Positions 2,011 to 64,000 of a stretch of 64,000 nucleotides of DNA are shown here, in pieces. Position 1 is the first letter of the stretch. Each line of letters starts with the position of its first letter. The DNA is from an uncultured Planctomycetia bacterium. GTDB lineage: Bacteria > Omnitrophota > Gorgyraeia > Tantalellales > Tantalellaceae. The position numbers and the translations under genes were made by a program. A model generated the notes under the pieces. The model saw only the letters and a program-made list of their open reading frames with translations, was not told where the DNA came from and made no database searches. Location: NCBI GenBank assembly GCA_964527765.1, contig CAZGQR010000009.1, positions 4,579 through 68,578 of the forward strand, given 5' to 3'.

Positions 2011-3933
<1,923 letters not shown>

Positions 3934-4026
3934 TCTTACCTGACTGTTCTATAAGTAATGATATTGAATTTGATAGTAGTAATCATACCGGACGCGGTGC
4001 TATTGTAACATACTCCTCAAACACGG

Positions 4027-20785: not shown

Positions 20786-20864
20786 TGGTCGGGACGGCCG
20801 GATTCGAACCGGCGACCCCTAGTCCCCCAGACTAGTGCGCTAAACCAGACTGCGCTACGTCCCG
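20786..20864 (-). tRNA. tRNA-Pro (anticodon GGG)
   Basis: Minus-strand sequence CGGGACGTAGCGCAGTCTGGTTTAGCGCACTAGTCTGGGGGACTAGGGGTCGCCGGTTCGAATCCGGCCGTCCCGACCA folds as a cloverleaf: 7-bp acceptor, D-arm GCGC/GCGC, anticodon stem CTAGT/ACTAG with loop CUGGGGG (U33, G34G35G36, G37), T-arm GCCGG-TTCGAAT-CCGGC, encoded CCA. Confidence 0.85.
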
Positions 20865-49019: not shown

Positions 49020-52000
49020 TTACGCGGCGGATGCTATGAGTTCCTCGATCTTTTTATACACGCCTCTGTCGGGGACCTTGACCGCTCCCGGGATAAGCCT
49101 GATAATAACGGTGGTTCTGTAGCATTCGGCTGTCCTGTCCCAGCACATCTCCCATATGGCGTCCTCGTCAAGGTCCGCGGCATTGTCTATGGTCCTGTAG
49201 CAGCTTATGAACTTCTCTCTCCAGTATTCCACCCACCCTTCATCTCCATGTTCCCCCATCCTTGCAAGGGCCCGGAAAAGAGTGAAAAGGACCACTTCCA
49301 TCAGCGGATAATAATGCTCGCTCGTCAGGCCATTGTCCGTTATCTCCGTTATCGTGGAACTTCCCTCAAATCCCTTGAAATATTTTTCGCGGTTTTCGCT
49401 GCTCGTCACGATCATGACATTTTCCCTGCGCACGCTGCCGTCACCGTTCTGCACTACCGATTCAAGGCCGGCGGCAAGGTTTTTGCCATTGCCGTAGCGG
49501 ATCACGATATTCTTAAGAAAATAAGCGAGCTGGTCGTTACCGCCCGCGCGGTCCTTGAGCGCCCCGATCAGTCTGCCCAGTTGTTCCCTTATCTCTCCCC
49601 CGGCCAGCTCTTCGTCAACGGCAAGCACTATCTTTTCTCTCCTGTGACACGCAGTGATCAGGCCGTTCACCAGTTCCGGGAGGACCGTCTCCATCCTTCT
49701 CATGATCCTTTTCTCGGGTAATATTTCCATATCCTCAGCCGGTTTGACCCGTGAAGCATCACCGTCGGCCGCCAGTCTTGCTTTGAAGAAAGACCTTACC
49801 TTATCAAGTTCGTCCATAACGTCTTTCATGTTATCCGGCGTGCGCCTGTCTGTATCCCCCGCGGTCATGCCCATGACCAGCAGTCCCAGGCCGCTCACCG
49901 TGATATCGTGCCCGGAAACGCCGCTATCCCTTCTTTCATCCTCGATGAACAGGTGCTCTATCGTCCTTCCCAGGCCGTAGATATCGCGCTGCGGGCATGC
50001 ATCCTTGTCGCCGGTCGAGAACCGGTCATGCCCCCCGCCGACACGTTCGCCTTCCGGCCTGGCCAGGCCGAAATCGATCAGCATGACCTGTCCGCCCCTG
50101 TTGAAAAGAATATTATCCGGGGCCACGTCATTATGGGTCCAGCCGGCCTCATGCATGCGGTGCAGTATCTCCGCCACGCGGATAAAGACATCTATCTTTT
50201 CAAGGGGCCCGAGTTCCTGCCAGCGGCCCGCCGCGAGGTCTTCGCCCTCTTCCATCCCTTTAAGCTTCATCCAGAACGCACCGTTCGGGGTCGTGCCGAG
50301 GGTGATCAATCGCGGGATGCCTTCCCGGACCCCCAGCTTGTCCAGCTCCACCAGGGCCTGAGCTTCCTTGATGTTCACTTCGTTGTTATATCTTATTCCC
50401 TGTTCGTCCTCATCCATCCGCGAAACTTTATAAAAAACGTCCGGGTCCGACATGTCCTGAAAAATATCCGAGACATACCCGGACGCCATGTAGTCGTATT
50501 TTTCCTCATCGTGTTCCTCTTCCGAGACACCAAGGATCGAACGATCGACCAGCTGCTTAAGGCGCGGGTCCCGCTCCAGCTGCTTCAAAAGCTCTTCCGC
50601 CGCGTCGCTTGCCGCAGCAAATCCGAATTCAGCATCACCGGCAGCACCGGCATCCTCCGTCCCGAGAAGTTCCCGCCACTCTTCTTCTCCGAACATGGGA
50701 AGTCCCGGCTCCGTTTCCCCGAATAATTCCGTATCATTCAGGTGCTTTTCCATTATGGAAATGCTTTCCTCGATCTCCCGGAAAATATCCAGGATCAACT
50801 CCCTCCTCTTGTCGTCAATATTGGCTTCCCGCGCCAGAAATTCATCGATGGTCCTCGGAATGACCCTCAGGAACTCTATCTCCTTTGAGCTTCCGGAGGT
50901 AATTCCAAGTTCAAATTTCAGCATCTCGCGGATCCCGCCCAGCACCCAGACCATGGCTCCTTTTGTGCCGAGCCCCAGGTCCACGTACACCACCGGGGAG
51001 AGGTGCGCATCCGAGTGCTGAAGGACAAGATTCTGCCCTTTCATGTCCCTGATATAGAATCCCACGGCTTCACCGCTTTCATCCTTTTCCGCGGTAAGAA
51101 GCCACGCGCGGATTATGGTCTCGATCGCCTCCCGGTACGCTTTTTCCTTTTCCGCGGGGTCGTCGATCCTGTCGATGCTTACACCGTCCGCGAACTCGCC
51201 GATAGTGAGCCCGTAAATATCCTGCTTGTCCAGGTCCCTTGAAAGCCGGCGACTGAAGTCGTCCTCGATATAATAGCTTTTCTTGATGAATATCGCCACG
51301 CCGTTAAGCGCGCGGAGCTGCTTGAACCAGTCGATCTCGCGGCCTACCTTTTCCTGGGCGGTCATGATGTCTTCATAGTTCTCTTCATCTATCAGCCTGC
51401 ACCCGAACTTTATCCTGCGTCCGTCGTCGACTTCCGCTTCGACCCTGAACACGTCTTTGTAATCCCCGCTCTCTATATACCTTATGCCCCTGATGATGAA
51501 ATTTCTGCTTGTCGGGGAAACCTGCTGTTTGACGTCTTCCAATATTTCGGATAAGGCCCTTTTTAATGCCGCTTTCAATCTTCTTGTCCCCAGGGGCCAG
51601 ATCGTTTCCCGCAGCCCTCCCCAGAGGAGATCGTCGTCAATGCGCACTTCGGGCCTGAGGGGCAGTCTGGCGGACATCATTTTGGGCTGCGCGGCTTCCT
51701 TCCCGGTCAGAATGGCCCTTACCCTCAGGGCTTCGGCGCGGAATTCCCGCGCCGCGTCCGCGTCGCCGAGCTCGTCCTGCCTGAAAGCCAGTTTCTCCAG
51801 GTAATCCGCGGCGGCGTAGGCCGCTATCATCATGTTATAACTCGCTTTTTTGCTGGAACCCGATATCTTTCGCCATATTTCGCTCTCTTTTCTTGAAGGA
51901 TCGCGCGCCCATGACAATCCCTTCACCTTGGGATCGGCATCCGTCGCGGGAAGAGCGCCCCCGGCGATGTCATGCCTCTTGAGATACCTTCTGATGATCC

Positions 52001-55000
52001 TCGCCGCTCTTTTCTGGTGATAGCTCGCGATGTAAAAGATCATGTTATCAAGCCGCTCGTAGACGCCGTTGGGGCTTGCCGCTTTCGCGGAGAAATCTAT
52101 CTTCTTCTTTATCAGCTCCTGCGTAAGATCGATAAAATGCGCGTGGATCTCCGGGGCCCTGTCCGGCTTGAACGTTATGTAAGCACGCACTTCTTCCGCA
52201 CCCGGGTCCCTGTACTTCCCGGTCGATTTGTTGTAAAACAGCATGAAACCTGACGCGTTACGCGTGTCCCCGTTATAGTGATAATCGGACTCTGCGTTTA
52301 TGTGCCTGAAACGGACTTCGATGCCGAACTTTTCGAGCAAGATCTCCCTGAAACCCTGACGGACGGCGCGCCCCTCTTCCAGTATCTTCATGGCCCTTTC
52401 GCGGGATGGCTCGCTTTTTTCTCTCCGTCGTTCTATAAGAAAATTATACATGTATCGCACTACCCGGCCGGCAAGTGTGGGCCTGTCCCCTTCGACAAAA
52501 AGGTTCCCCATTACCGGGGCGATAAAAACATCCGGTTTCCTGTCCACGACAGGAAAAAGAGGGCTTACCTCTACACCGTCCGGTTCCAGAGCGCCGGTAG
52601 ATTCCCCCCGTTGCCGCGCGAACAGTTTTTCGAACTCCGCCAGTTTTTTCGGATCCTTCGCCAGAGCTTTCCTGATCACGTCCGCCTGGGAGAGAAGCCC
52701 CGTGCGCACGAGATACTCGACCAGTTCCTGCGCCGTGGCTTTTCCGGCGAACCCTTTCAAATGTTCGGCATCCAGCCCTCCGCCCATTGGTGGCGATTTA
52801 TCTTCAGGTGATTCGGCAATGGGCGGACGGGCTGTGATGCCGCTGCGGGCAGGCAATTCGTCCGTTATGAATATCCTTATCTGGGGATCGCGGTAATCGC
52901 AGTTCGAATCAAGTTCCTTTCCGTACAGATACGCGCTATAAGGGATCCCACAGGCCTTCAGATAGCTCGTATAGATCTCGAGGTGTTCCAGTTCACCGGA
53001 GGCGAGCCTGCGCTCCGGGAAGAGCTCGTAGTCATCCTTCTTGTCAAACCTGTATATGTATTTGAGCGGGAAATAAAAATCGGCCCGGACGGTCCTGTCC
53101 CGCGAGCGCTTCTCCGAGTCAATAAGAGTGATTATGGAATCGAAACTGTGGCGGTGGCAGGCGCCCCATGCGCCTCCCGTGATCACGAAAACAATATCGT
53201 CATTTTTAAGAACGGTTTCCACCCATTCCGCTTCAAGATCACCTTTATTTATCTGCGTTTCTCCGATCCCGTATTTTGACGCGAGCCGTTCCGGATCGGG
53301 GGCATATGCATCCGAAGGCCTGGTCACGATGCACCGGTGATCGACCGGGCCGAGCGCATCTTCAACGCCGGCGATCGTTCTGCCGGGGATCTCCGGGTGG
53401 ATCTCAAGGGCTGCTATTTTCGCGTCGGTAACGGCTGTTTCTCTGGCGGAAGAGGCCGTGGCACGTGGAGGCTTTGTGAAAACATAAGCGGTATTGACAT
53501 TTATCAGTCCCGGTATTTCCTCAAACCCGGGTTCATTTTCCACGAAATCCTTTCCGTCGAAGTGGCCCCATTTCAGGCTCCACCCACCTTTCTTTACGAG
53601 TTTTTTGCTAAGCTTACGTATAATAGGCCTGTTCTTCCGGTAGGCTTTCGAACTCGGCGGAAACTCTATAATGATCTGTCCGCCGGGCGCCATCCATTCT
53701 CCGAGCTTCTCATACCAGGCATCGGGAATATCCTTCACGTCAACATAAACGGCGACGTTGCATAATCTCAAAGTCCCGACACTGCCCGGCGCAAGATCCA
53801 GGTCGAGTATGTCCTGCTCCAGCACTTCCATCCCGTCGTCCGTCTCCAGCAGCGCCTCTTTTACCTGATTCAAATACGCGATAACAAAAGGATTCTTGTC
53901 CACGAAAACATACTTGCGGTCCTTGGAAAAATTCAAAAAGTAATAAAAGGGATTAGTGCCCGAAGCCAGGTCATAAAAGGGTTTTTTGTTCGCTTCCGCA
54001 TCCGGATTTTCGTGCCCCGCTATGATCCGGTTCAGCTGACCTATTTCCCGTGCGTATTCTATGTTTATGAGGGCCAAAAGCCGGCCTAACAGCGCTACAA
54101 ATTCCTTCGCCTCCGGATCTGCATGCATAGTGCCCGTAAAAGCGGTAAACCGCCGGAACCCGTCAAACATGTAAGGCTGATCAAGTTCTTCATATTCTTC
54201 CACTAAAAGTTCATAAGCCAGGTTAAGATCTTTCGCAGTGTTTAAAGAAAGAAGTAATTTGCCTGCTATTTTGAAAAAATCAAATCCGGTGCGTTCGATC
54301 ATCTCGACGAACTTCGGGTCCTTCTGCATGTAGATCTCTCTGGCGCGGGCGGCAAACCGCTCCGTGTTTTCCGCCGAACGGGCGGCGGGCAGTCCGGGAA
54401 CGGGCTCAAATTCGATGGAAGTCCGCGTTCCTACGATATTCCTGTGATTTTTACCGTAAATTTCCTGTCTTCCATAATACGCCACGCCGTCCAAGGCCCT
54501 GACGGCCTTTTCACCGGCCCCGTAACCGTACAGCTGGGCATTATGAGCCCCTATCGTTTTCCCCGTATCTACGCCCTCTTTCGACGCCGTATCGTATACG
54601 TCCATGACTTTCGCGCTTCCGTGGGGGGAGAGCTCCAGATAAATGAATATGGGACGTTCGAGATCCATTCTGTTCCCGTGCACAAAAGCGTTCTGTAAAA
54701 CCTCCCGGACCGCGGAACGCATGTCTTCTCTGCCAAATGCCCCGGACATACCCCACGCAAGATCGATCAACAGGCCTTTTAACTCTTCGTATTTATTCTT
54801 TACTTTGGAGAGAGCTTTTAGATCGAGACTGACGATCTTCCCGTTTTTGATCGCGTTTATTATTTCGTCTGTCGAAGAAATATCTATCTTGACGATCTCG
54901 GATGCGCCGGTCGTCTCCCTTATCGCCTGCTTCAGGGGATCCAGCGGCGGTAAAACCCTCTGCCCGTCGGCGGATACCGCGGAGAATAAGACCCCCTGCT

Positions 55001-58000
55001 GAAGGATGGGCCGCGGCTGGGGTTCCGGCAGCGGGAATAATGTCAGCTGTTCATAGGCGGGCGCCTTCTTCTCGACCGACATCCTTACCTTATCGAGCAG
55101 ATCCTTCGCCATATATTCAGATATTGCAACGAAACGGCACTTTTGCCGTTCGTCTTCGGGCAGATCCTCCGTTGAAGGATAATAGATCTCCCGGAATCCG
55201 AGTTTTTCAAAGAAATCCTTCGCCTGTTTTCCCTCTTCGGCATATTCGCTGTCCTCTGCCGGGTGCCCCGCGAATATTCCTTCCGCGCTGCCCTTGGTAT
55301 CAGGATCGTTCAGACCCCTTTCAACGGCCTTCGCGATAAGGACCTTGCCCAGGCCTCTCTCTCTATATTCTTCCGAGATCTCCATGTACTCGCCGATATA
55401 AACATCCCGCGCATAAAGTTCCTGCGCCCCTTCTTCAGGGAACATGAACGGGCCCTTGTAATAATACGCCATGCCCAGGAGTTCGCCTTTCTCCGACTGC
55501 AGCTTTGCCAGGAATCCGGGGGAATGCATCTTCCCGTCCATGGCGCCTTCCCAATTACGTCTTTCAAAATAACGTTCCTTCCCCGGGGCGAACCATGCAT
55601 CCAGGGTCTCTTTTATTTTGACCGGATCGGATACCTCCTCCACGTAATACCTGGTATCACCGGTCCGGAAAGGCCCTCCTATAAGTTCTTTCCGTTCTGC
55701 GGCGGGGTGCCGCGTCAGCCCTCCGACATCCTGCCGCGCAAGCAGTTCCTCGAACTCCGCCAGTTTTTGCGGACGCCTCTTTAATGCTTCCCTGATTATA
55801 TCCACCTGATAAAAAAGACCCGTACTCGTAAGATATTTGATCAAGCCTTCCGGCGTCGCTATCCCGGCGAATTCTCCCAACTGTTTAGCATCCAGCCCCC
55901 CGCCGATAGGCGCTGCGGCCTTTGGCTCTTTTGTTTTATCTGTTCCCGGATGTCCGGCAGGATCATGCCCGGCCCATTCCAGTTCCCAAAGCTCTGCCTG
56001 CTTTTCATCCGCTAAATCGATGCTGACGGGTTTCCATCCTTTGCCCTTGAACGGGAATTCGTAATTTTCCCACAGATTTACTTCCGGTATCGTGATCTTT
56101 TGCCTTTTATACCGCCGTCTTATCCTTTCCTTTCCGGAAGCGTAGAACGATCCGATCCCTGCCTTTTTTGCGGCACTGATTATTTCTTTTATGGCATTTT
56201 CCGCCCATGCCCTGTATACATCCCTTACATGGCTCGGCTTTAGTTTCCTATATCCCCTTGAGGGGTGCACTTCATTAAATAAAATCGCCGGCTTTCCGCC
56301 TATGAGCTTAACTTCAGCTTCTATCTGGCCGAATGAACCCTCCGGGCCTATGAACGCCTGCGCGACCGGCATATCCAACACATCCAGTTCAGGATGGCTA
56401 TCCCTATAAGAGACCTCCGGCTCAACGACAAAAACCTTAAATATATCATCATACTCGACCGTTGCCGTCACCCGGTGCCCTTTATGATCCCAGGTGATTT
56501 CCTTCTTACCGGCAAAAGACCCTATAAATTCTTTTTTCAGTTTTTCCATGCCGGCCCGGGGGAGTTCCCGGGGCTTTTCCGCGGGCTGTTCTCCGGACGG
56601 AGTTTTCAAAAAGTGACTGATAAGAAGGCTGCCTATCACAATACCCGCCAGCCCCAGAATACCCCAGATACTTAACGCGCCGATGCCCGCAAGAGCGAAT
56701 GCGGGCAGCATCCGGGTTTGATCCTCCGCGGCGCGGACCGTGAAAACGATATCGCCGAAAGGATTATCTCCCGACCGGTTGGAGTTGATAGACGGCCGCC
56801 ACAGCGATTCTTCATCGGAAAACTTCCCGTAACGGAGGCGCCCTTTAGCGTCCTTGTACCTGTAGCCCGTGACGCGGGCTTCAGCCGTAACCAGATACCT
56901 GCCGGGCCTCTTCGGCTCAAATACGCCCCCGAAAACATAATCGTGATGATGAAGACCCCCCACCGCCTTGTAATCCATGGGTATATACTCGGTCCCGACA
57001 AATTTTCCGTTTTCATCGAACGTGTTGATCTTCAGGCGGGCTTCCAGGCATTTTTCCGCGAAATTGCGATTTTTCTCAAAATCATCCCGGGTTTTTTCCG
57101 GAACGGGATAGAACTCCTCGACCTCGCCAAGGTATACCCTCAAAGTGATCTCGCTGCGCGAATTTGTTTCGCAGTCTATCCTGGCGCCGGAGACGGGGTC
57201 AAGCCCTCCCAGCCATGAAATGCGCGGATAAACGAACGCCTTGTCGAGCCTCTGCGATACGACCAGCTGCCGCAGGATCCCGGATACGTGTTCCAGCGTG
57301 ACGGTGTCCCCCTCAAAATCCATTTCCTCCCTGAGGATGGTCATTATCGTCTCAAGCGAATGAAGATCGTCCTTGGCCCTTTTATTGGCCTCGTAATAAG
57401 GCTCTTTTTGGTCCTCCGGCACATTAAGCTCACTGATCATGCCGTCAAGCACTTCTATATCTTTTGCCAGAGCATTTTTTATGCCGTTCATCTCTTTTAA
57501 AAAGCTGCGGACGTCTTCCACGGTCAGTCGCGCCATATTGCCTTCCATCTTGGAAATGCTGTATCTCGCCTCGGCAATATGACCCGCGGAGTTCTGTCCG
57601 AATTCAGTGTGGGATTCCCGGGATATGTCATCCTTGTGTTGCCTGACCAGGTGCTTTATATTGGACCGTATCAACCCTTCCACCGAAACCACGCTGTTGC
57701 GGAAAAGATGGCTTGTATCGGAAATGATCTGTTCCGGCACTGTCCTTTTGTGCGCTTCCATAAAGAGCATGACCTGTTCCGGATATGTTTTACCGTCTTT
57801 CTCGTCCACGCTTCTCGTATGCGCGTATTTTATGAAATGTTTATACTCCGAGGGATATGCCCTTTCAAGATAATTGACCGCGTCCCTGAACGGAAACTGC
57901 AGCGTGAGCATAAAAAGGAACAGGAAATCTTTTTCCTTCTTCTGATCGGCGGCCAGTATCCCGCCGATGGTCCTGCGGAAGATATGATCGAACCTGGCGG

Positions 58001-61000
58001 GGGTGAACGGGACCATGTCGTATTTCTCCTTGTTGACCGACAAAAGCTTCATGAGATGTTCCCTTACCAGTCTCATGCTCCGGGTCTCGTCCGGTACGGT
58101 TTTCGCCCACTCATTGAACTCATAAATAACAAGATTATCGCGGCACTGGGCCCACTGTTTTCCTATTTCACCGGCGATATCCTCCAGGGCCTCTTCTATG
58201 TCCGCGTAAACCTTCCTGTCGAACCTGTTCAGGCTTACCCGTTCTTTGTTCCCGCTGTCGTACAGCCTGACGGGATTGCCGATGACCTTTTCGCTGTAAT
58301 AATCCGCGGCAAGCTCTTCGACGAACTCCTCTTCCGTTCCATATCCGCCGTGCTGGTCCTGGTAGAGCCTCATAAAACGCGCGAATTTCTCCTGGCCCAG
58401 CCTGCCCCTGAGCCGCCCCAGGAGGGCTTTTACATGATCGTCCGTTATGAGCTCGTGCACTTTTTCGTGAAAATACCCGTAAGTCTGTATTTCGGACCGG
58501 GAGATATTTCTGCCCAGCGTCTCGGAAAGCGATTGCCTGTAGATCTCCATGACCTGTCTCGGCTGCTCCAGGACCCGGGGCGTTTCGCCCTTGATGATGC
58601 GGAAGATACCGAAACGGATGATCTCCCGGGCCTCTTCTTCCCTGCATAACCCCGCATCGACAAGCTTTTTCGTAAAAACCCCCCACAGGTTTCCTTTGCC
58701 TTTTTTGACCATGCGGGGAGGCCGCGAGGAACGTTCTTCGCCCTTGTCTTTCTTTCCGGAGCGCGTCATTACGTCGCATGACATTTCCTTCGGCGTATCA
58801 TCCCAGTGCCTGTAGATCCACTCGCGCAGGATCCAGATCGCTTCTTTGGCCTCTCTGACGGCTTCGGCGTTAACCCCGATCTTTAGCGGGCCCAGCAGAT
58901 TTCCGTATATATCGCTGAGGTCGGCTTCTCCGGAGCTGAACGATTTCATGTTCCTCAGATCCTTGTAACGCCGGCTGCCTTCCTGAAAATATTTCAGGAA
59001 TCTTTCCGCGAGCTCAGCCGCCGAAAGCGAGGAAATTTCTCTCACGAACGGCTCTTCCCAGCGTTCCTTGAATTCTCCCGGCCATTTGCGCGGGTAATAC
59101 GCGAGCTTGACCAGGTCCACAAAGCTTTCAAGGTCAAAGCGGCTTATCCTGTTCCGACGGACGTTCTCTGTATAGTTTTTCCACATCTGGTGCCAGTAAA
59201 TCTCAAGCCGCGATATATCAGTAAGGTTCTCTGTTTCGGATGGAATAGCCGCAGCCTTCAGAAGCTCGCGTTCCTGTTCTTCGTTCAGGCCGAAATCGAG
59301 GGAGAGGGCCCTTAAAAGCTCCGCATATTCCCATTTGTTCAGGGACTCCAGGCTCTCCGATCCCGAATCGCCGAGAGATCGCAGCGTCTTATAAAGATTC
59401 CCGTATTTGACGCTCATTTTTTCAAAGGAACCCGCCAGGGACGGTATCGAATCCACCTCGAGGGCGCGGATAAGGACCTGAAAGGCTTCGAACAGGGGAT
59501 TGGGTATCTTCCTGGAACGTTTCCGGGGGTCGGGCATTTGCATGCTCACGAAAGCGGCGTGGTAGAAAAGCGTCCACAAAAGACGCGGGGAACCCCTTCC
59601 GATATTGTTTTTGCGCGCGAACTGCAGGTACAGGTTGAAATTTTCCACGAAAAGCCGGTCCATGCATTCCGCCGGTTCCCCTTTCAGGCGGGCATCTATA
59701 TACTGGTCCCTCAGGATCTCCATGAACGAATTCAAGAGTTCCGTGAGCCTGAGGCGTTCTCTTGCCGCCTTGATATATTTTCTCGGAAGATTTTTATCCC
59801 ATTCTCCGCCTTTCTGCCATTTCTCGAGTTCTTGCCGTGCTCCCTGCAAAAGGTTGTTCATGCGGTAAAATTCCGGCTCTTTGAGGCTCCTGTCCCGGGT
59901 CATGCCCTGTATCCATCCCAGGGCGGTATCGTTCTTGCCCCTCTCGAGAAACTCCAGTATCCTGTCCGCTTTCCATATGTTAAAACTGTTGCGGTGATGT
60001 ATCCTGTATCTGAGCTCGCTTAATCTCCCGGTCAGTATACGGTCGATCTGGCTCTCAAGCGCTTCCTGCCTGACTTCCAGGAGACTGGCTATGACGCGCA
60101 ATATCTCCAGCGCGCTTCCGTACTCCTCGATCTCCAGAAGCTCCCTGACAAACCCCGACGCCTTGAAAGCGATCGCCTTTTCCCTGACCTTGGCCCTTTT
60201 GAGCGAACTCTCAAGGCCGCCTAAAAGTTCCACGATCTGTTCTTTTCTCTCGATCTCTTCGGCACCGGCGGCACGTTTCCAGCCTTTCCGGCGGCCGACC
60301 GCCTCTTTTGTCTCCTCCAGGGCCTTGATGGATCCCCTGGCCGCGGAGACCGTCCTGCGCACCCAGTCCATCTCCTCGAGGATACTGTCGGTCTCCCTGT
60401 CGCACGTGCGTATCGCCTGCCATGTCAGCTTAGAGGCGTGCTCCGTAACTTCCCTTACATAAGCCTCCCTTTCGCCGGATATCGCATGTTTCGCGTATTT
60501 GCCTTTAAGCACCTTGTACATCCCCGCGCTGGCGTCAAACCACGTTCTCGGCCGCATCCTTCTTTTTCTGGCGCGTGATGCCAGGGCAAGCTCCTCGGCA
60601 AGAAGGCGCGAAGCGGCGCAAAGCGAAGCGCACGCGGCGGACTCATTTTTAATATCTACAAGTTCAATGGCGCGCCCGATCTTTTCCCTGATCTCTTCGC
60701 GGTAATTACGCCCGCCCGTGATAGATAACGGATATGAAGGATCTTCAAGTCGGAACAATTCGCCGTGCATCTCTTCTCTCAGCTTTTCCAGGCGCCCCAG
60801 GCAAACTCGAAGTTTTTCTTCCCTTTCTTCTTCCGGGGCCCCGAAGATCCACCTTATGGACAGCCCGGCGCGCTCGGACGAAAGACGGATAAGTTCAAGG
60901 TTTATCTCGGGGATCCGGCGCAGGTAATAGAACAGGACATCTTTCTCCGCTTCTATATCCAGCAGTATCCTGGCGCGTTCCAGCTGGTCATAATCCGGAC

Positions 61001-63971
61001 CGGCGGACAGCCTTTCAAGTATGACCCTTGCCCCCCCGTACATCCCGGGCGGCCCCCTGCGATACCTTTCGGCCAGTTCATATATGAACGGTTTTTTCTC
61101 TTTGTCGACATGCAGTATGCCGAGGCTGGCCATGCCTTCCAGCTCAGACGATATGGTGCTGTATGAAAAGCTCTTTTCACCGCTCTTCTTCCTCCTGTCC
61201 TGGAATTCCTTTCTGGTAAAAGGACTGTTCCTTAAGGAGCCTTCCCTTAACAGGGTATCAAACCCTTCCAGTATGGAACCGCGCGGCCGGAGCCCTCTCC
61301 TGCCCTTGAACATCTCTCCGATCTGCGGCAAAGGAGGCGCCCGGGGAATGGGCACAGGCTCGGCCTCCGCTTCTTCCTTTCGGGACCTTCGCCTCATGAT
61401 CAATATCGCGGAAAGCAGCAGGACCAGCGGCACCAGGTTCCCTATATCGAAATCCGTGTTTTCCGTCGTGAAGGCGCAGCAGCATCCGCGTTTTTCTTTT
61501 TTCTCCTTGTCAAAAAGGTACCACTGGTAGGGCGACCAGCCCGCGGAGATCGTCACTGACTCCGAATAATCGCTGTCCTTCTGGCCGTCCGGCATTTCCG
61601 TGCGAATGCTCAGATCATAATCACCCGAATGCATGTGATCGGGCAGATCGACCGCATACGAGGATGTCCCTGCCCCGGGAACAAAAAATGTATCCGTGCC
61701 TATCCGTATCGTGTAACCGGTGACCGATCCCTGCAGGGCGCCGGTGTACGGCACCCAGTCCACGGTGAACGTCCTGCCGCCGGCGGCGATCACGTCTATG
61801 ATCTCGGGCGCGAACGGTTTGACTTCCGCCGACATGTTCCAGTGCTGTATGGTATCCGCCTGGGGATCGGTTATCGTGAATCCCGTATCGTCCTGCCAGA
61901 AAAGCGCTCCTTCCGCACCGGCATTGTACACCGAATCCATTTTTACGGAAATATTCGTCGGCTCGAGCTCGGTAAAAGAGAACGGCCCGTCCAGCCCGCT
62001 GGGAGGCTGAAGAGCCCCCATGTAATCATAATAATGGATCCCGTACTTATCCAGGCCGAGAGCGTTCCAGTTCAGCACCGTGTCCTTGTTCTGGGCCCCG
62101 ACCGTGACCACCGAACCCGGGTCCTGAATATGGATCATGTCGGCAAGATCCGCCACGAAAGACTGTACCTCCGGGAGGGTGGCGGTCGCCGCCCACACGA
62201 TCTCTATCGGTTCGTTTATGATGTCCCACTCGACGATCTCGCGCCGGAGCGAATACTGATTTACGAACTGCGCCATCAGATTTATCAAGGCGGCCTTTTT
62301 CACGGGATCGGTTATGAGTTCAGGGTATTCGCCCACGGGATTCGGCCCTTCCATGTCCACGCCGTCGGCCAGCGTGTAGTCGAACAGGGTGGGAATGAGT
62401 TTTATGCCCAGGGCGTTCGCGGCGTCCATGAGCGCGTCCATATCCTCATACACGTGGGCGGAAAAGGATATGGGGGCGCCGCCGCCGTCAAAGACGACAC
62501 CGGACCTTAAGTCACAGAAAAGAAATACCCGCAGATAGCCGCCCTTCCACCGGTTAAGTTCCTGGTAAAGCGCGCTCTTTTTCGTCGCTATGCCTTCGTA
62601 CGGCTCGCCGTTCACGCCGTCTCCTATATCATATCCGTATTTTTCCCAATAATTCGCGCCGCGGGCGAACGTCCAGCCCGGCGTCCACTCCTCGATGATC
62701 TCCTGGACCGGATCGACCTTTTCCACGCTGCCGTCGGGGTAATACGTTATAAACTCGGTAAGGTTCCAGGAGCCGTCATACGCGAAAGTCCAGATCGTCC
62801 CGTCCGTGTCATGCCTGCTGTTTATGTATTCATCGATCCCGTCCAGACAAAAGGAAGCCACCGTGCCGTCATCATACGTCCTGGTAAGGTAATTCGCGTC
62901 TATTGCCTCTTCTGATGCCATGGTAGAGGTGATCGGTGTATATTTTCCCGTACCGGCCGTGGCCGCGATCGGCGCCAAAAGCAGGAAGAAACAAAGCGTT
63001 AAAATGACGAATATCCTTGCCATCCAGCTGACCATCCCGAACACAAAGGGCAGCAGGAATGAATAAAACGTTCTGCCGTTTTCGGGAAGCAGGATTTCGG
63101 CTTTTTTTATCGCCTCATCCAGCGGCACCGGATGAACGACCCCCCTTCGTTTGATCTGTTTCCTCATTTCTTTAAGCAGCTTCAATATGTCCTCCGCTGC
63201 TTCTTTTTGCCCGACACTGCGGTTGAACTGGCCGGCATGCTCCCTGGCAAGGTCCATGCCCTCCGCTCCGGACGGATCCAGCACCAGCAGTTCGCTCAGG
63301 TTCTGCATCGCCCGCGGGAGCATGATCTTCGGATATTTGTCTTTAAGGGTGGAAATGATGACCGCCAGGATAAATCTTCCCATGACCGACCGCGCTTTAC
63401 CGTCAAACTTCCCGGGCAACCCTTGTTTTATGAATCCCTGCAAGCCGACGTAAAAATCGGCTGTTCTTTCTTCCTCCCAGGAATAGGTCAGCGACTTGGG
63501 AAACACATGGGCCGGGATCCTCCACACCGATAATTCCCTGAATATCCTGCTGTAGACATCCTGCTGGCCCTTATCGTCAAGATCGTCAAGCGCGAAATCT
63601 TTCCTGCTTGCGATGGTTTCTGCAAGCAGGGGCTGGATCTTTTTAAACGTGTCTTCGTCAAGAAACCCGCGGAATTTCATGATCTTCAGCCAGCCTTTGA
63701 CATCCGCTTCATTGTGTATGATAATTGTCCGCGGATATAAGCGGCGTTCGGTGAGGGCGCAGAACGCGTCGGCCACCGAAAAAAGATTCACTCTTATGCC
63801 AAGTTGCCGGTTAACTTTTTTGAGGGTCTCTCTTAATCTGGGTTCATGATTCACGGCTATGGTCAGGATGGCTTCCGGCGGCAGCCGAATACCGCTTTTC
63901 TTAAGGACCGCAAGCGAATCCCCGGTATGGTCATGGATCCTTTTCTTCTCGTTATCCGTCATCTGCGCCAA
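49020..63971 (-). CDS. giant multidomain membrane-anchored protein, 4983 aa: TM-flanked extracytoplasmic GH-A-like domain plus ~4100-aa cytoplasmic region with GNAT-, GHKL-ATPase-, SAM-MTase- and two kinase-like domains
   Basis: Single uninterrupted 14.9-kb reading frame. Codon usage and GC are continuous with neighbours. The domain motifs are detailed in the sub-features. No in-frame stop between 63971 and the window end, so the 5' end may lie outside the window. Codon 1 as reported appears to be TTG. An ATG (M4, ~63960-63962) has AGGA 11 nt upstream. Confidence 0.85.
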   Translation of the reverse strand: MAQMTDNEKKRIHDHTGDSLAVLKKSGIRLPPEAILTIAVNHEPRLRETLKKVNRQLGIRVNLFSVADAFCALTERRLYPRTIIIHNEADVKGWLKIMKFRGFLDEDTFKKIQPLLAETIASRKDFALDDLDDKGQQDVYSRIFRELSVWRIPAHVFPKSLTYSWEEERTADFYVGLQGFIKQGLPGKFDGKARSVMGRFILAVIISTLKDKYPKIMLPRAMQNLSELLVLDPSGAEGMDLAREHAGQFNRSVGQKEAAEDILKLLKEMRKQIKRRGVVHPVPLDEAIKKAEILLPENGRTFYSFLLPFVFGMVSWMARIFVILTLCFFLLLAPIAATAGTGKYTPITSTMASEEAIDANYLTRTYDDGTVASFCLDGIDEYINSRHDTDGTIWTFAYDGSWNLTEFITYYPDGSVEKVDPVQEIIEEWTPGWTFARGANYWEKYGYDIGDGVNGEPYEGIATKKSALYQELNRWKGGYLRVFLFCDLRSGVVFDGGGAPISFSAHVYEDMDALMDAANALGIKLIPTLFDYTLADGVDMEGPNPVGEYPELITDPVKKAALINLMAQFVNQYSLRREIVEWDIINEPIEIVWAATATLPEVQSFVADLADMIHIQDPGSVVTVGAQNKDTVLNWNALGLDKYGIHYYDYMGALQPPSGLDGPFSFTELEPTNISVKMDSVYNAGAEGALFWQDDTGFTITDPQADTIQHWNMSAEVKPFAPEIIDVIAAGGRTFTVDWVPYTGALQGSVTGYTIRIGTDTFFVPGAGTSSYAVDLPDHMHSGDYDLSIRTEMPDGQKDSDYSESVTISAGWSPYQWYLFDKEKKEKRGCCCAFTTENTDFDIGNLVPLVLLLSAILIMRRRSRKEEAEAEPVPIPRAPPLPQIGEMFKGRRGLRPRGSILEGFDTLLREGSLRNSPFTRKEFQDRRKKSGEKSFSYSTISSELEGMASLGILHVDKEKKPFIYELAERYRRGPPGMYGGARVILERLSAGPDYDQLERARILLDIEAEKDVLFYYLRRIPEINLELIRLSSERAGLSIRWIFGAPEEEREEKLRVCLGRLEKLREEMHGELFRLEDPSYPLSITGGRNYREEIREKIGRAIELVDIKNESAACASLCAASRLLAEELALASRARKRRMRPRTWFDASAGMYKVLKGKYAKHAISGEREAYVREVTEHASKLTWQAIRTCDRETDSILEEMDWVRRTVSAARGSIKALEETKEAVGRRKGWKRAAGAEEIERKEQIVELLGGLESSLKRAKVREKAIAFKASGFVRELLEIEEYGSALEILRVIASLLEVRQEALESQIDRILTGRLSELRYRIHHRNSFNIWKADRILEFLERGKNDTALGWIQGMTRDRSLKEPEFYRMNNLLQGARQELEKWQKGGEWDKNLPRKYIKAARERLRLTELLNSFMEILRDQYIDARLKGEPAECMDRLFVENFNLYLQFARKNNIGRGSPRLLWTLFYHAAFVSMQMPDPRKRSRKIPNPLFEAFQVLIRALEVDSIPSLAGSFEKMSVKYGNLYKTLRSLGDSGSESLESLNKWEYAELLRALSLDFGLNEEQERELLKAAAIPSETENLTDISRLEIYWHQMWKNYTENVRRNRISRFDLESFVDLVKLAYYPRKWPGEFKERWEEPFVREISSLSAAELAERFLKYFQEGSRRYKDLRNMKSFSSGEADLSDIYGNLLGPLKIGVNAEAVREAKEAIWILREWIYRHWDDTPKEMSCDVMTRSGKKDKGEERSSRPPRMVKKGKGNLWGVFTKKLVDAGLCREEEAREIIRFGIFRIIKGETPRVLEQPRQVMEIYRQSLSETLGRNISRSEIQTYGYFHEKVHELITDDHVKALLGRLRGRLGQEKFARFMRLYQDQHGGYGTEEEFVEELAADYYSEKVIGNPVRLYDSGNKERVSLNRFDRKVYADIEEALEDIAGEIGKQWAQCRDNLVIYEFNEWAKTVPDETRSMRLVREHLMKLLSVNKEKYDMVPFTPARFDHIFRRTIGGILAADQKKEKDFLFLFMLTLQFPFRDAVNYLERAYPSEYKHFIKYAHTRSVDEKDGKTYPEQVMLFMEAHKRTVPEQIISDTSHLFRNSVVSVEGLIRSNIKHLVRQHKDDISRESHTEFGQNSAGHIAEARYSISKMEGNMARLTVEDVRSFLKEMNGIKNALAKDIEVLDGMISELNVPEDQKEPYYEANKRAKDDLHSLETIMTILREEMDFEGDTVTLEHVSGILRQLVVSQRLDKAFVYPRISWLGGLDPVSGARIDCETNSRSEITLRVYLGEVEEFYPVPEKTRDDFEKNRNFAEKCLEARLKINTFDENGKFVGTEYIPMDYKAVGGLHHHDYVFGGVFEPKRPGRYLVTAEARVTGYRYKDAKGRLRYGKFSDEESLWRPSINSNRSGDNPFGDIVFTVRAAEDQTRMLPAFALAGIGALSIWGILGLAGIVIGSLLISHFLKTPSGEQPAEKPRELPRAGMEKLKKEFIGSFAGKKEITWDHKGHRVTATVEYDDIFKVFVVEPEVSYRDSHPELDVLDMPVAQAFIGPEGSFGQIEAEVKLIGGKPAILFNEVHPSRGYRKLKPSHVRDVYRAWAENAIKEIISAAKKAGIGSFYASGKERIRRRYKRQKITIPEVNLWENYEFPFKGKGWKPVSIDLADEKQAELWELEWAGHDPAGHPGTDKTKEPKAAAPIGGGLDAKQLGEFAGIATPEGLIKYLTSTGLFYQVDIIREALKRRPQKLAEFEELLARQDVGGLTRHPAAERKELIGGPFRTGDTRYYVEEVSDPVKIKETLDAWFAPGKERYFERRNWEGAMDGKMHSPGFLAKLQSEKGELLGMAYYYKGPFMFPEEGAQELYARDVYIGEYMEISEEYRERGLGKVLIAKAVERGLNDPDTKGSAEGIFAGHPAEDSEYAEEGKQAKDFFEKLGFREIYYPSTEDLPEDERQKCRFVAISEYMAKDLLDKVRMSVEKKAPAYEQLTLFPLPEPQPRPILQQGVLFSAVSADGQRVLPPLDPLKQAIRETTGASEIVKIDISSTDEIINAIKNGKIVSLDLKALSKVKNKYEELKGLLIDLAWGMSGAFGREDMRSAVREVLQNAFVHGNRMDLERPIFIYLELSPHGSAKVMDVYDTASKEGVDTGKTIGAHNAQLYGYGAGEKAVRALDGVAYYGRQEIYGKNHRNIVGTRTSIEFEPVPGLPAARSAENTERFAARAREIYMQKDPKFVEMIERTGFDFFKIAGKLLLSLNTAKDLNLAYELLVEEYEELDQPYMFDGFRRFTAFTGTMHADPEAKEFVALLGRLLALINIEYAREIGQLNRIIAGHENPDAEANKKPFYDLASGTNPFYYFLNFSKDRKYVFVDKNPFVIAYLNQVKEALLETDDGMEVLEQDILDLDLAPGSVGTLRLCNVAVYVDVKDIPDAWYEKLGEWMAPGGQIIIEFPPSSKAYRKNRPIIRKLSKKLVKKGGWSLKWGHFDGKDFVENEPGFEEIPGLINVNTAYVFTKPPRATASSARETAVTDAKIAALEIHPEIPGRTIAGVEDALGPVDHRCIVTRPSDAYAPDPERLASKYGIGETQINKGDLEAEWVETVLKNDDIVFVITGGAWGACHRHSFDSIITLIDSEKRSRDRTVRADFYFPLKYIYRFDKKDDYELFPERRLASGELEHLEIYTSYLKACGIPYSAYLYGKELDSNCDYRDPQIRIFITDELPARSGITARPPIAESPEDKSPPMGGGLDAEHLKGFAGKATAQELVEYLVRTGLLSQADVIRKALAKDPKKLAEFEKLFARQRGESTGALEPDGVEVSPLFPVVDRKPDVFIAPVMGNLFVEGDRPTLAGRVVRYMYNFLIERRREKSEPSRERAMKILEEGRAVRQGFREILLEKFGIEVRFRHINAESDYHYNGDTRNASGFMLFYNKSTGKYRDPGAEEVRAYITFKPDRAPEIHAHFIDLTQELIKKKIDFSAKAASPNGVYERLDNMIFYIASYHQKRAARIIRRYLKRHDIAGGALPATDADPKVKGLSWARDPSRKESEIWRKISGSSKKASYNMMIAAYAAADYLEKLAFRQDELGDADAAREFRAEALRVRAILTGKEAAQPKMMSARLPLRPEVRIDDDLLWGGLRETIWPLGTRRLKAALKRALSEILEDVKQQVSPTSRNFIIRGIRYIESGDYKDVFRVEAEVDDGRRIKFGCRLIDEENYEDIMTAQEKVGREIDWFKQLRALNGVAIFIKKSYYIEDDFSRRLSRDLDKQDIYGLTIGEFADGVSIDRIDDPAEKEKAYREAIETIIRAWLLTAEKDESGEAVGFYIRDMKGQNLVLQHSDAHLSPVVYVDLGLGTKGAMVWVLGGIREMLKFELGITSGSSKEIEFLRVIPRTIDEFLAREANIDDKRRELILDIFREIEESISIMEKHLNDTELFGETEPGLPMFGEEEWRELLGTEDAGAAGDAEFGFAAASDAAEELLKQLERDPRLKQLVDRSILGVSEEEHDEEKYDYMASGYVSDIFQDMSDPDVFYKVSRMDEDEQGIRYNNEVNIKEAQALVELDKLGVREGIPRLITLGTTPNGAFWMKLKGMEEGEDLAAGRWQELGPLEKIDVFIRVAEILHRMHEAGWTHNDVAPDNILFNRGGQVMLIDFGLARPEGERVGGGHDRFSTGDKDACPQRDIYGLGRTIEHLFIEDERRDSGVSGHDITVSGLGLLVMGMTAGDTDRRTPDNMKDVMDELDKVRSFFKARLAADGDASRVKPAEDMEILPEKRIMRRMETVLPELVNGLITACHRREKIVLAVDEELAGGEIREQLGRLIGALKDRAGGNDQLAYFLKNIVIRYGNGKNLAAGLESVVQNGDGSVRRENVMIVTSSENREKYFKGFEGSSTITEITDNGLTSEHYYPLMEVVLFTLFRALARMGEHGDEGWVEYWREKFISCYRTIDNAADLDEDAIWEMCWDRTAECYRTTVIIRLIPGAVKVPDRGVYKKIEELIASAA
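49751..50471 (-). other. giant ORF: Hanks-type (eukaryotic-like) Ser/Thr protein kinase-like domain 2 (aa ~4500-4740)
   Basis: FWMKLKG (beta3 Lys), catalytic loop WTHNDVAPDNILF (nt ~50106-50135), DFG as MLIDFGLARPEG (nt 50068-50076), subdomain IX-like DIYGLGRTIEHLF. Confidence 0.6.
50771..51371 (-). other. giant ORF: degenerate protein-kinase-like domain 1 (aa ~4200-4400)
   Basis: Catalytic-loop-like FYIRDMKGQNLVL (nt ~51030-51050, RD-K-x-x-N retained, His lost) and DFG-position VVYVDLGLG. Confidence 0.4.
52620..52795 (-). repeat. giant ORF: internal module copy B (aa ~3725-3783), PMGGGLDAEHLKGFAGKATAQELVEYLVRTGLLSQADVIRKALAKDPKKLAEFEKLFARQ
   Basis: Paralogous to copy A. Shared nucleotide strings include ggctggatgc, ttcgccgg and aaaaactggcggagttcga. 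Confidence 0.7.
53561..53951 (-). other. giant ORF: class I SAM-dependent methyltransferase-like domain (aa ~3340-3470)
   Basis: Motif I-like ILDLDLAPGSVGTL (nt ~53780-53820) and post-I/motif II-like WMAPGGQIIIEFPP (nt ~53664-53699) at typical spacing. Confidence 0.45.
54401..54821 (-). other. giant ORF: GHKL/HATPase_c-like domain resembling RsbW/SpoIIAB-type serine-kinase anti-sigma factors (aa ~3050-3190)
   Basis: N-box AVREVLQNAFVHGN (nt ~54672-54710), downstream Gly-rich boxes DTGKTIG and GYGAGEKAVRAL. Confidence 0.5.
55211..55631 (-). other. giant ORF: GNAT-like N-acetyltransferase domain (aa ~2780-2920)
   Basis: Motif A-like RERGLGKVLIAKAVERG (nt ~55325-55375), with beta-strand pattern GELLGMAYYY...VYIGEYMEISEEY upstream and DFFEKLGFREI downstream. 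Confidence 0.5.
55745..55915 (-). repeat. giant ORF: internal module copy A (aa ~2685-2742), PIGGGLDAKQLGEFAGIATPEGLIKYLTSTGLFYQVDIIREALKRRPQKLAEFEELLARQ
   Basis: ~50% aa identity, and visible DNA-level similarity, to copy B at 52620-52795. Confidence 0.7.
56610..56715 (-). other. giant ORF: third 35-aa hydrophobic segment (aa ~2419-2454), possible re-entrant/hairpin membrane anchor
   Basis: MLPAFALAGIGALSIWGILGLAGIVIGSLLISHFL. Gly-rich centre. Topological consequence uncertain. Confidence 0.4.
61393..61436 (-). other. giant ORF: predicted transmembrane segment 2 (aa ~846-859) followed by RRRSRK
   Basis: NLVPLVLLLSAILIM then RRRSRKEEAEAE (positive-inside), returning the chain to the cytoplasm. 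Confidence 0.6.
61437..62960 (-). other. giant ORF: predicted extracytoplasmic domain (aa ~338-845) with clan GH-A (GH5-like) glycoside-hydrolase signatures and a C-terminal FN3/Ig-like module
   Basis: EWDIINEPIE (NEP acid/base motif, nt ~62209-62217). ~80 aa downstream FTELEP (candidate nucleophile Glu). Aromatic-rich beta/alpha pattern. Then a beta-rich segment (TFTVDWVPYTGALQGSVTGYTIRIG...YDLSIR) and CCC just before TM2. Confidence 0.5.
62961..63068 (-). other. giant ORF: predicted transmembrane segment 1 (aa ~302-337)
   Basis: FYSFLLPFVFGMVSWMARIFVILTLCFFLLLAPIAATAG. The long hydrophobic stretch is preceded by a charged cytoplasmic-looking region. Confidence 0.6.
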
Positions 63972-63974
63972 ATT

Positions 63975-63999
63975 CCTGGCGCTATAGTGAAGCGCCAGG
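63975..63999 (-). other. perfect 9-bp stem / 7-nt loop hairpin (cctggcgct-atagtga-agcgccagg) immediately 5' of the giant-ORF reported start
   Basis: Seen directly. Could be a terminator of an upstream gene, a 5'-UTR structure, or coding if the ORF continues upstream. Confidence 0.4.
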
Positions 64000-64000
64000 T

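Follow-up and report, generated by a model that had tools for sequence, protein, structure and literature searches.

Two kinase-fold domains of different families beside a HopA1/LanY-type lyase-like domain in a giant Omnitrophota protein

Most of the protein considered here, one of the giant proteins of Omnitrophota, is without annotation. It is encoded on the minus strand of a 64,000-nucleotide stretch of an uncultured bacterium (contig CAZGQR010000009.1 of assembly GCA_964527765.1; hereafter the window), in which its open reading frame (ORF) ends. A preliminary description of this locus proposed that the protein ends in two tandem kinase-like domains, a degenerate one (domain 1) followed by one of the Hanks type (domain 2), and likened this pairing of pseudokinase and kinase to regulatory tandems. 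This raises the question of what the two domains are, and whether one of them serves the other or each is an enzyme in its own right. The motif strings that had been quoted were all found, on the minus strand and within one uninterrupted ORF. Our answer to the first part of the question is given with high confidence: the region holds two kinase-fold domains, and they belong to different families. With moderate confidence, judging from the residues that are conserved, both would be catalytic phosphotransferases and the pseudokinase-regulator reading would be wrong. The reading that we favour, and which we consider slightly better than an even bet, is that of a lyase-kinase-kinase cassette, in which two kinase-like families are juxtaposed, both of them phosphotransferases dependent on adenosine triphosphate (ATP) and neither a pseudokinase regulator. 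The last ~1,270 residues of the protein would then form one cassette, consisting of a 73-residue repeat, the lyase, domain 1, an acidic linker, domain 2 and a region of ~240 residues. The coordinates of the features are collected in Table 1, where amino acids (aa) are counted from the TTG codon at 63971 on the minus strand.

Table 1. Features of the giant ORF in the window
Feature	Window position	Residues (aa)	Strand	Basis or remarks
Giant ORF	49020..64000	4,983 aa in window	minus	from TTG at 63971; frame open to window edge
Stop codon of giant ORF	49020-49022		minus	
73-aa repeat module, copy 1	55731-55949	2675-2747	minus	just upstream of GNAT block
73-aa repeat module, copy 2	52611..52826	3716-3787	minus	just upstream of HopA1-like lyase block
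HopA1/LanY-type phospho-Ser/Thr lyase-like domain	51891..52259	3905-4027	minus	PF17914; directly upstream of domain 1
Domain 1	50712..51584	4130-4420	minus	HMMER family, alignment A1, AlphaFold2 (AF2) model, Foldseek, hhalign
Domain 1, Gly-rich loop and beta3 (ESGDYKDVFRV...IKFGCRL)	51393..51473	4167-4193 (Gly-rich loop 4167-4177; beta3 4187-4193)	minus	on model strands 2 and 3
Domain 1, catalytic and Mg-binding loops (YIRDMKGQNLVL...VVYVDLGLG)	50967..51056	4306-4335	minus	D4309, K4311, N4314, D4331
Domain 1, RDMKGQNLVL		4308-4317	minus	
Domain 1, VDLGLG		4330-4335	minus	
Acidic low-complexity linker	50535..50711	4421-4479	minus	between domains 1 and 2; read from sequence
Domain 2	49737..50534	4480-4745	minus	Pfam, PDB sequence matches, AF2 model, Foldseek
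Domain 2, beta3 (VFYKVSR)	50418..50438	4512-4518	minus	K4515; A2 column K36; model strand 33-37
Domain 2, beta5 near hinge (FWMKLKG)	50256..50276	4566-4572	minus	aligned to FYLALELVEGE-type segments; model strand 87-92, fifth strand
Domain 2, catalytic loop (HNDVAPDN)	50112-50135	4613-4620	minus	D4615, N4620
Domain 2, DFGLAR	50058-50075	4633-4638	minus	D4633
Domain 2, subdomain IX segment (DIYGLGRTIEHL)		4663-4674	minus	with D4663
C-terminal region	49023..49736	4746-4983 (238 residues)	minus	after domain 2

That there are two tandem kinase-fold domains, the second of them Hanks-like, was borne out by Pfam scores, PDB matches, structural models, Foldseek and hhalign, far beyond what chance would give. 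The limits drawn for the pair in the preliminary description need correction: the span of aa 4201-4740 truncates domain 1, whose N-lobe begins at about aa 4150, and should reach about window position 51584, and the pair is not the C-terminal end of the protein, since the region that follows domain 2 is still to come.

Profile searches had been suggested as a check, and for domain 2 they were positive. Taken alone, it scores 32.3 bits with Pkinase (E 9e-8), 29.3 with Kdo, 27.8 with APH and 23.6 with PK_Tyr_Ser-Thr, at or just above the respective cut-offs, while domain 1 matches no kinase model. The Pkinase match (PF00069, cut-off 31.7 bits) covers profile positions 94-146 only and drops to 28.4 bits when the whole protein is searched, so membership of PF00069 by score is borderline. 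Against PDB sequences, domain 2 matches kinases of known structure in the hundreds, with a Leishmania MAPK, PknE, MELK and PknA at the top. We aligned it with the canonical kinase domains of three weak homologues and of Omnitrophota giant proteins (alignment A2, nine sequences), in which G4498, K4515, E4536, H4613, D4615, P4618, D4633 with the following Phe and Gly, D4663 and G4668 are invariant; N4620 aligns to the Asn of the catalytic loop, present in all but one of the nine. The AF2 model based on A2 (predicted local distance difference test, pLDDT, 73.8) is a bilobal kinase fold with the motifs in canonical order. Its top Foldseek match is PknG (template modelling score, TM, 0.60; E 7e-11), followed by PknB, IRAK4 and tyrosine kinases (TM ~0.6), with at least 1,996 matches at E <= 1e-3. 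Domain 2 is a divergent Hanks-type protein kinase, and as such a diverged addition to a known family.

The alignment and the model also settle where its motifs lie. The FWMKLKG string had been taken for beta3 with its Lys, but corresponds to beta5 by the hinge in both; the actual beta3 Lys is K4515, 51 residues upstream. The alphaC Glu is E4536 (A2 column E57, model helix 44-66). A check for a Gly-rich loop upstream of FWMKLKG had been suggested, and its site was indeed found, although the loop is degenerate (MASGYVSDIF), with a single Gly left and two of the three glycines gone. Of the near-complete set of eukaryotic-type kinase motifs that had been announced for this domain, HNDVAPDN, DFGLAR and subdomain IX are present; an intact Gly-rich loop, a Lys in the catalytic loop and an APE motif are absent. 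There is no GTPxYxxPE/APE segment, and only ~30 residues separate the DFG motif from the subdomain IX Asp, leaving a short activation segment. Bacterial Hanks-type kinases (PF00069; PknA, PknB, PknE and PknG of Mycobacterium tuberculosis) supply some of the best matches of domain 2, PknG and PknB by structure and PknA and PknE by sequence. It has in common with them the fold, the Lys of beta3, the Glu of alphaC, an HxD...N catalytic loop, DFG and the Asp of subdomain IX, and differs by its one-Gly loop, HND in place of HRD, Ala in place of the catalytic Lys and the lack of APE and the P+1 loop. The catalytic loop follows the HxDxxxxN pattern, and loops of this kind that have no Lys are usual among active kinases of the APH, Kdo, RIO and Bud32 families. 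The residues that would carry out phosphotransfer in domain 2 are K4515, E4536, D4615, N4620 and D4633.

Domain 1 had to be approached through its own family. Searched alone, it has no meaningful match in Pfam-A (2025), NCBIfam 20.0 or PDB sequences; a match to F420-dependent glucose-6-phosphate dehydrogenase (E 0.02-0.05) was rejected as due to chance. When the representatives of 1.84 billion clusters were searched exhaustively with HMMER, the result was 22 homologues with E-values from 4e-38 to 5e-4, most of them within proteins of 1,360-5,186 aa and five being proteins of 419-450 aa. Those with a named source come, without exception, from Candidatus Omnitrophota. The family alignment (A1) comprises 21 sequences, with 19-36% identity to the window copy; when these 21 members were compared with curated kinase models, only 4 of them gave weak matches, to ABC1 (best E 0.006). 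The A1 consensus reads YxGxGxxKxVxRV ... FGLRL ... E ... GFTxGEF ... WLLT ... GxxIxDLKxxNFV ... VxYIDLG, with columns G40, R63, G129, W161, G175, D180 and D202 invariant and K43, G61, E83 and N185 nearly so. The window copy had been called degenerate, and it does lack the His of the HRD motif. However, this position is occupied by Ile, Leu, Val or Met throughout the family, so the missing His is a family trait and not a decay of this copy, which has kept every residue conserved in A1: G4169, K4172, G4190, R4192, E4212, G4258, W4290, G4304, D4309, N4314 and D4331. At the position of the VAIK Lys on beta3, all 21 sequences have Arg (R4192, column R63), and a Lys on beta2 (K4172, column K43) is conserved in at least 90% of the family.

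Several results place this family in the kinase fold, namely its model, the structural matches of that model, the profile matches of A1 and the profile-level alignment with domain 2. The AF2 model built from A1 (pLDDT 92.1; predicted TM-score, pTM, 0.89) shows the order of elements of a kinase, with three strands, a long helix, two strands, a hinge, another long helix, short strands at the catalytic and Mg-binding loops, and further helices. There is no activation segment in it, the DLG loop leading straight into helices. As had been suggested as a check, fold and motif order could thus be examined in models of both domains, and both are kinase folds, with the canonical motif order in domain 2; the ends of the two models that face the linker are of low confidence. 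Foldseek found 513 PDB matches for the domain 1 model at E <= 1e-3, and the best 50 are without exception enzymes of the kinase fold, with RIO2, CDC7 and the putative aminoglycoside phosphotransferase 3dxp among them. The A1 profile gives 35 sub-threshold matches to PDB sequences, each of them (35 of 35) a kinase matched at the catalytic-loop/DFG or the Gly-loop/beta3 region. Finally, hhalign aligns A1 with A2 over 157 columns, from the Gly-rich loop through DFG (probability 96.1%, E 3e-9), and a profile iterated from domain 2 recovers domain 1 at 33.6 bits. In the hhalign alignment G40 (G4169) and K43 (K4172) fall on the second and third Gly of GxGxxG, R63 (R4192) on the VAIK Lys of beta3, E83 (E4212) on the alphaC Glu, D180-x-K-x-x-N185 (D4309, K4311 and N4314) on HRDxKxxN, and D202 (D4331) on the DFG Asp. 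On these sequence and profile comparisons, domain 1 defines a kinase-like family that the models of Pfam-A (2025) and NCBIfam 20.0 do not cover and in which the beta3 Lys is replaced by Arg family-wide. A recent tandem duplication as the origin of the pair was rejected, as the two domains can be aligned only between profiles, with 13% identity, and one stands closer to one family, the other to another; they are members of different families of the protein-kinase-like superfamily that have come to be juxtaposed.

Could a kinase with such an active site work? The beta3 Lys is the most conserved residue of the kinase-like superfamily, and the WNK kinases replace it by Lys233 from beta2, through which WNK1 is active (PMC4718504). 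The domain 1 family likewise has no beta3 Lys and carries a beta2 Lys at the position of the third Gly, as placed by alignment and secondary structure. WNK1 has Cys at the beta3 position, while domain 1 has an invariant Arg there; there is no specific sequence relationship between the two, domain 1, unlike WNK, is without the HRD His and the activation segment, and its family is a bacterial one, known to date from Omnitrophota only. Phosphotransfer in domain 1 would involve D4309, K4311, N4314, D4331 and the alphaC E4212, with an unconventional ATP contact made up of R4192 at the place of the beta3 Lys and K4172 on beta2, as in WNK. We infer from this conservation that the family is probably active with a WNK-like arrangement of Lys. 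The family breaks the rule that no family as a whole loses the beta3 Lys, and would offer a bacterial parallel to the WNK solution.

Domain 1 can also be compared with the RIO, Bud32/PRPK, Kdo/WaaP and APH kinases, as it passes in the same way from its DFG-type loop straight to the C-terminal helices. RIO2 and an APH are among its top structural matches, and its best PDB profile match is a Ser/Thr kinase of 245 aa. None of the Pfam or NCBIfam models of these families matches it, though, and where they have an HxDxxxxN loop, domain 1 keeps the DxKxxN form found in protein Ser/Thr kinases.

The most serious competitor of the cassette reading remains the regulatory tandem of the preliminary description, in which domain 1 is a dead pseudokinase that allosterically regulates an active domain 2, as in the JH2-JH1 pair of JAK; we regard it as unlikely. 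Manning's definition of a pseudokinase asks for the absence of the VAIK Lys, the HRD Asp or the DFG Asp together with inactivity (PMC4718504). With Arg for the beta3 Lys, and lacking the HRD His and the activation segment besides, domain 1 would be given the label of pseudokinase by the residue half of the definition, as WNK once was. The order of domain 1 followed by Pkinase, moreover, recurs in two of the giant homologues, P0012 (domain 1 at 3145-3417, kinase at ~3561-3719) and P0013 (domain 1 at 1511-1742, Pkinase at 1845-2069 with 132 bits), with a spacer of about 90-100 aa that is similar in length to that of the window protein. It is on conservation and on neighbourhood that this explanation loses ground. 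Across 21 sequences that are only 19-36% identical to the window copy, there is little or no variation in the catalytic Asp, in the Asn and Asp that bind Mg or in the alphaC Glu, which would be unexpected for a dead scaffold, and the conserved beta2 Lys offers a WNK-type substitute for the one lost from beta3. In one further homologue (P0004), two copies of domain 1 stand in tandem, together with two Pkinase domains and a GNAT domain. For the others, the stand-alone proteins among them, no Pkinase domain could be detected beside domain 1, and the same holds for two more loci with domain 1 that a scan with a five-sequence sub-alignment (A3) brought up. Since domain 1 is mostly found without a Pkinase neighbour, and occurs also alone and in tandem, it is not an obligate regulatory partner, and its pairing with a kinase is recurrent yet not obligatory. 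It may be added that, of the two domains of the window protein, it is domain 2 that is the more eroded.

Three observations on these homologues can be placed here. P0015, a stand-alone family member of 419 aa (L084 8001-9260, on a 587-kb ENA scaffold), is surrounded by the housekeeping genes rpsP, trmD, rplS, rnhB and rny; neither a lyase nor a kinase adjoins it, and the neighbourhood gives no clue to its function. Just upstream of domain 1, P0012 (aa ~3000-3140) and P0013 (aa ~1370-1500) have a hydrophobic, multi-pass stretch that contains the motif APVAEExxYRG and which by eye looks like a membrane domain of the CPBP/CAAX-protease type and not like a HopA1-like domain. Downstream of the domain 1/Pkinase pair, the same two proteins carry a third type of kinase-like domain (DIHGGNFVV ... 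VMVDIG; aa 4243-4357 in P0012 and 2572-2682 in P0013), from which it follows that Omnitrophota giant proteins can hold three or four kinase-fold domains each.

Directly upstream of domain 1 lies a further domain, absent from the preliminary description, which matches PF17914 with 31.0 bits (E 2.8e-7, cut-off 22.7) over profile positions 6-122 of 170. In class V lanthipeptide and thioamitide pathways, the HopA1-like LanY proteins serve as phospho-Ser/Thr lyases and are complexed with the APH-like kinase LanK (PMC9486802, PMC10604976, PMC12291118). In the LanY protein CaoY, R187, K219, R229 and Y236 are tested or conserved functional residues (PMC9486802). We obtained the CaoY segment YRAKVISTRTGYPRFDALVLYL by translating mutagenesis inserts given in the supplement of that paper (PMC9486802). 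Its best local alignment across the 4,983 aa is FSAKAASPNGVYERLDNMIFYI (aa 3960-3981), which brings K3963, R3973 and Y3980 into register with K219, R229 and Y236 of CaoY, with an identical K-x9-R-x6-Y spacing; 10 of 200 shuffled CaoY queries score as high somewhere in the protein. For the N-terminal CaoY fragment around Arg187, no alignment was obtained at the expected site. R3929, which lies 34 residues upstream in an RxYxxF context, resembles R187 by eye and was not recovered by alignment. A word-indexed homologue search with the HopA1-like region returned 0 matches.

The presence of this domain invites comparison with the lanthipeptide dehydratases, in which the chemistry of dehydration by a kinase plus a lyase has been established, both for LanK with LanY and for the class III and IV enzymes LanKC and LanL, whose lyase, kinase and cyclase form one chain (PMC9486802, PMC10604976, PMC12291118). 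Like these, the window protein has a PF17914 lyase with CaoY-type Lys, Arg and Tyr residues N-terminal to kinase folds. One lyase and two kinase-fold units match the parts list of class V (LanY, LanK and LanX), and the order of lyase then kinase is that of LanKC and LanL, which are also the best NCBIfam matches of domain 2 (40.4 bits for LanKC, NF038151, and 38.2 bits for LanL, NF038150). The differences are equally clear. LanX is a second kinase-fold protein that acts as cyclase and has no kinase catalytic residues (PMC12291118), whereas both kinase-fold domains of the window protein keep theirs. Unlike the dehydratases, the lyase-kinase-kinase set is fused within a membrane protein of more than 6,000 aa, and no LanC-like Pfam match and no flavoprotein decarboxylase match occur anywhere in it. 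Filing the set as a lanthipeptide synthetase was rejected, given the absence of a synthetase among the best 60 PDB sequence matches, the absence of a HopA1-like domain in the homologues scanned and the unaligned Arg187 fragment.

If lyase and kinase nevertheless work together, one or both of the kinases would phosphorylate Ser or Thr of a protein or peptide, and the adjoining lyase would beta-eliminate the phosphate, leaving dehydro-amino acids. That the lyase and at least one kinase jointly dehydrate Ser/Thr, by the chemistry of LanK and LanY but in a membrane-associated giant protein, is a coupling that we infer by analogy and consider possible, if on balance improbable. Doubtful, too, is the more specific proposal of a fused Ser/Thr dehydratase in a membrane-anchored giant protein, which would act on proteins of the producer, of a host or of prey, not on the precursor of a peptide made by ribosomes and modified after translation (RiPP), and in which the ATP-dependent step would be carried out by the new family of kinases with Arg on beta3 and Lys on beta2. 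Were the coupling true, dehydration by a kinase plus a lyase would extend past lanthipeptide and thioamitide biosynthesis and type III effectors, and this chemistry would reach the giant multi-enzyme proteins of ultra-small, possibly predatory bacteria; under the dehydratase proposal, the giant protein would belong to a probably host-dependent Omnitrophota bacterium. The lyase with the two kinase folds, ~1,270 aa together, is a compact module open to separate expression and assay.

A number of results weigh against the cassette of two working kinases and a lyase, and they concern each of its parts. For domain 1, the TM-scores of the Foldseek matches are only 0.35-0.46, with large root-mean-square deviations, the change from Lys to Arg at beta3 is the classical kinase-dead substitution, and P0012 and P0013 have Asn at the position of the beta2 Lys, so that not every member of the family has the WNK-like compensation. 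In domain 2, Ala4617 stands in place of the catalytic-loop Lys, two Gly-rich-loop glycines and the APE motif are missing as well, and the pLDDT of the model is only 74. Word-indexed homologue searches returned 0 matches for domain 2 alone and 3 for domains 1 and 2 together. As regards the coupling to the lyase, Omnitrophota giant proteins concatenate many unrelated enzymes, so the adjacency of lyase and kinase is weak evidence, and no HopA1-like domain was found in the other proteins with domain 1 (Pfam search of five, single-sequence phmmer search of all). The scores of domain 2 with the LanKC and LanL models lie far under the family cut-offs (575 for NF038151 and 650 for NF038150), and no lanthipeptide synthetase is among the best 60 PDB sequence matches of domain 2 or of its C-lobe. 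Nor was a LanC-like, LanD or precursor gene seen; the genes downstream are housekeeping ones, and the region upstream of the giant gene is outside the window.

Another way to account for the two kinase folds is that one or both phosphorylate small molecules (sugars, lipids or antibiotics), in the manner of APH, Kdo/WaaP or choline kinase-like enzymes, and do not act on proteins, which would fit the part in glycan processing that has been proposed for giant proteins of Omnitrophota. This would suit the lack of an activation segment and P+1 loop in domain 1 and the putative APH (3dxp) and RIO2 among its structural neighbours, as well as the HxDxxxxN loop of domain 2 and its passing of the Kdo and APH cut-offs; the giant Omnitrophota proteins have also been linked to cell-wall and sugar processing in published work. 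We think it a little less probable than the pseudokinase explanation. Against it, domain 2 finds its best matches in protein kinases (PknA, PknE, PknG, PknB and MAPK), the subdomain IX Asp that it keeps is typical of protein kinases, the phospho-Ser/Thr lyase next door has peptides as its substrates, and neither domain scores above the cut-off of any curated small-molecule-kinase equivalog. Least probable of all is a reversal of roles, with domain 1 working and domain 2 decaying into a non-catalytic scaffold or substrate-binding module comparable to LanX, which does show that a kinase fold may be put to other uses (PMC12291118). Gone from domain 2 are the glycines of GxGxxG, the Lys of HRDxK and the GTPxYxxPE/APE segment, all of them present in the Pkinase domains paired with domain 1 in P0012 and P0013; it scores 28.4 against a cut-off of 31.7 with Pkinase in the whole protein and had no close homologues in our searches, but it retains the beta3 Lys, the alphaC Glu, the HxD Asp, the Asn and DFG, exactly what LanX is without, and its Lys-less loop is of the kind described above for active enzymes, of which the Kdo and APH models match it above their cut-offs.

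The lyase-kinase-kinase cassette of our favoured reading is embedded in a protein with many other parts. The same gene is called at 6,184 aa on a JGI metagenome contig, with 1 base difference over 21 kb, and its true start lies beyond the TTG codon at 63971, the frame being open on the minus strand through 63972-64000 to the window edge. The protein shares with the Omnitrophota giant proteins ('Archaeovorins'; the Pfam 'Module 1' class with methyltransferase, HATPase, GNAT, HAD and HD) its origin in Omnitrophota, transmembrane segments and a multi-enzyme make-up, with an above-cut-off GNAT match and weak HD, GHKL-like and methyltransferase-like ones, and is small for the class. Term searches of two papers on these proteins turned up neither HopA1 nor Ser/Thr protein-kinase domains among the recurrent modules. 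The GNAT domain (aa 2798-2928, window 55188-55580) scores 28.8 bits with Acetyltransf_1 as an isolated segment, above the Pfam cut-off; a GNAT domain is thus present both here and in P0004, the homologue with two copies of domain 1. The GHKL module, which the preliminary description had put forward as a second, unrelated kinase fold in the protein, is weakly supported by an HATPase_c_2 match at aa 3082-3136 (window 54564-54728; 19.2 bits, E 0.0012, cut-off 27.4). Downstream of it, a methyltransferase-like stretch is weaker still (Methyltransf_12, 14.3 bits).

Hydrophobic segments are found at aa 304-342, 839-861 and 2421-2457. Between the first two lie ~500 aa (window 61388-63060) with weak fn3 and RHS-repeat matches and an NEP-containing stretch, and this part (aa 304-861) is probably an extracytoplasmic carbohydrate-binding or glycosidase-like region. 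The need of the cassette for ATP and of the upstream GNAT domain for acetyl-CoA would argue that they are in a part of the protein that faces a cytoplasm. The 73-aa module occurs in two copies, one before the GNAT block and one before the lyase block, which suggests that it marks cassette boundaries. The copies are identical at 39 of 73 positions (53%; local alignment, BLOSUM62 score 181), with the pattern GGGLDA..L..FAG.AT...L..YL..TGL..Q.D.IR.AL...P.KLAEFE.L.ARQ, and have no family match. To judge from this placement, the module may be a cassette-boundary or docking element, and copy 2 may open the lyase-kinase-kinase cassette. At the other end of the cassette, aa 4750-4983 have no match in Pfam, NCBIfam or PDB sequences. 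A scan for related loci with the 661-aa region found none among genome contigs or metagenome contigs.

The RecA encoded in the window shares 82% identity with its counterpart in Candidatus Makaraimicrobium thalassicum and 77-81% with those of several Omnitrophota metagenome-assembled genomes, which identifies the window as a chromosome segment of an Omnitrophota bacterium. Downstream of the giant ORF are cinA/pncC, thpR, recA, alaS and his and trp genes. The first ~80 aa of the giant ORF in the window have a weak HD_5 match (15.9 bits), which is consistent with an HD domain cut by the window edge. All ORFs identified as genes (his, trp, alaS, recA, thpR, cinA and the giant gene) are on the minus strand, as is the sole tRNA, tRNA-Pro(GGG) at 20786-20864, making this an unusually long co-directional run.

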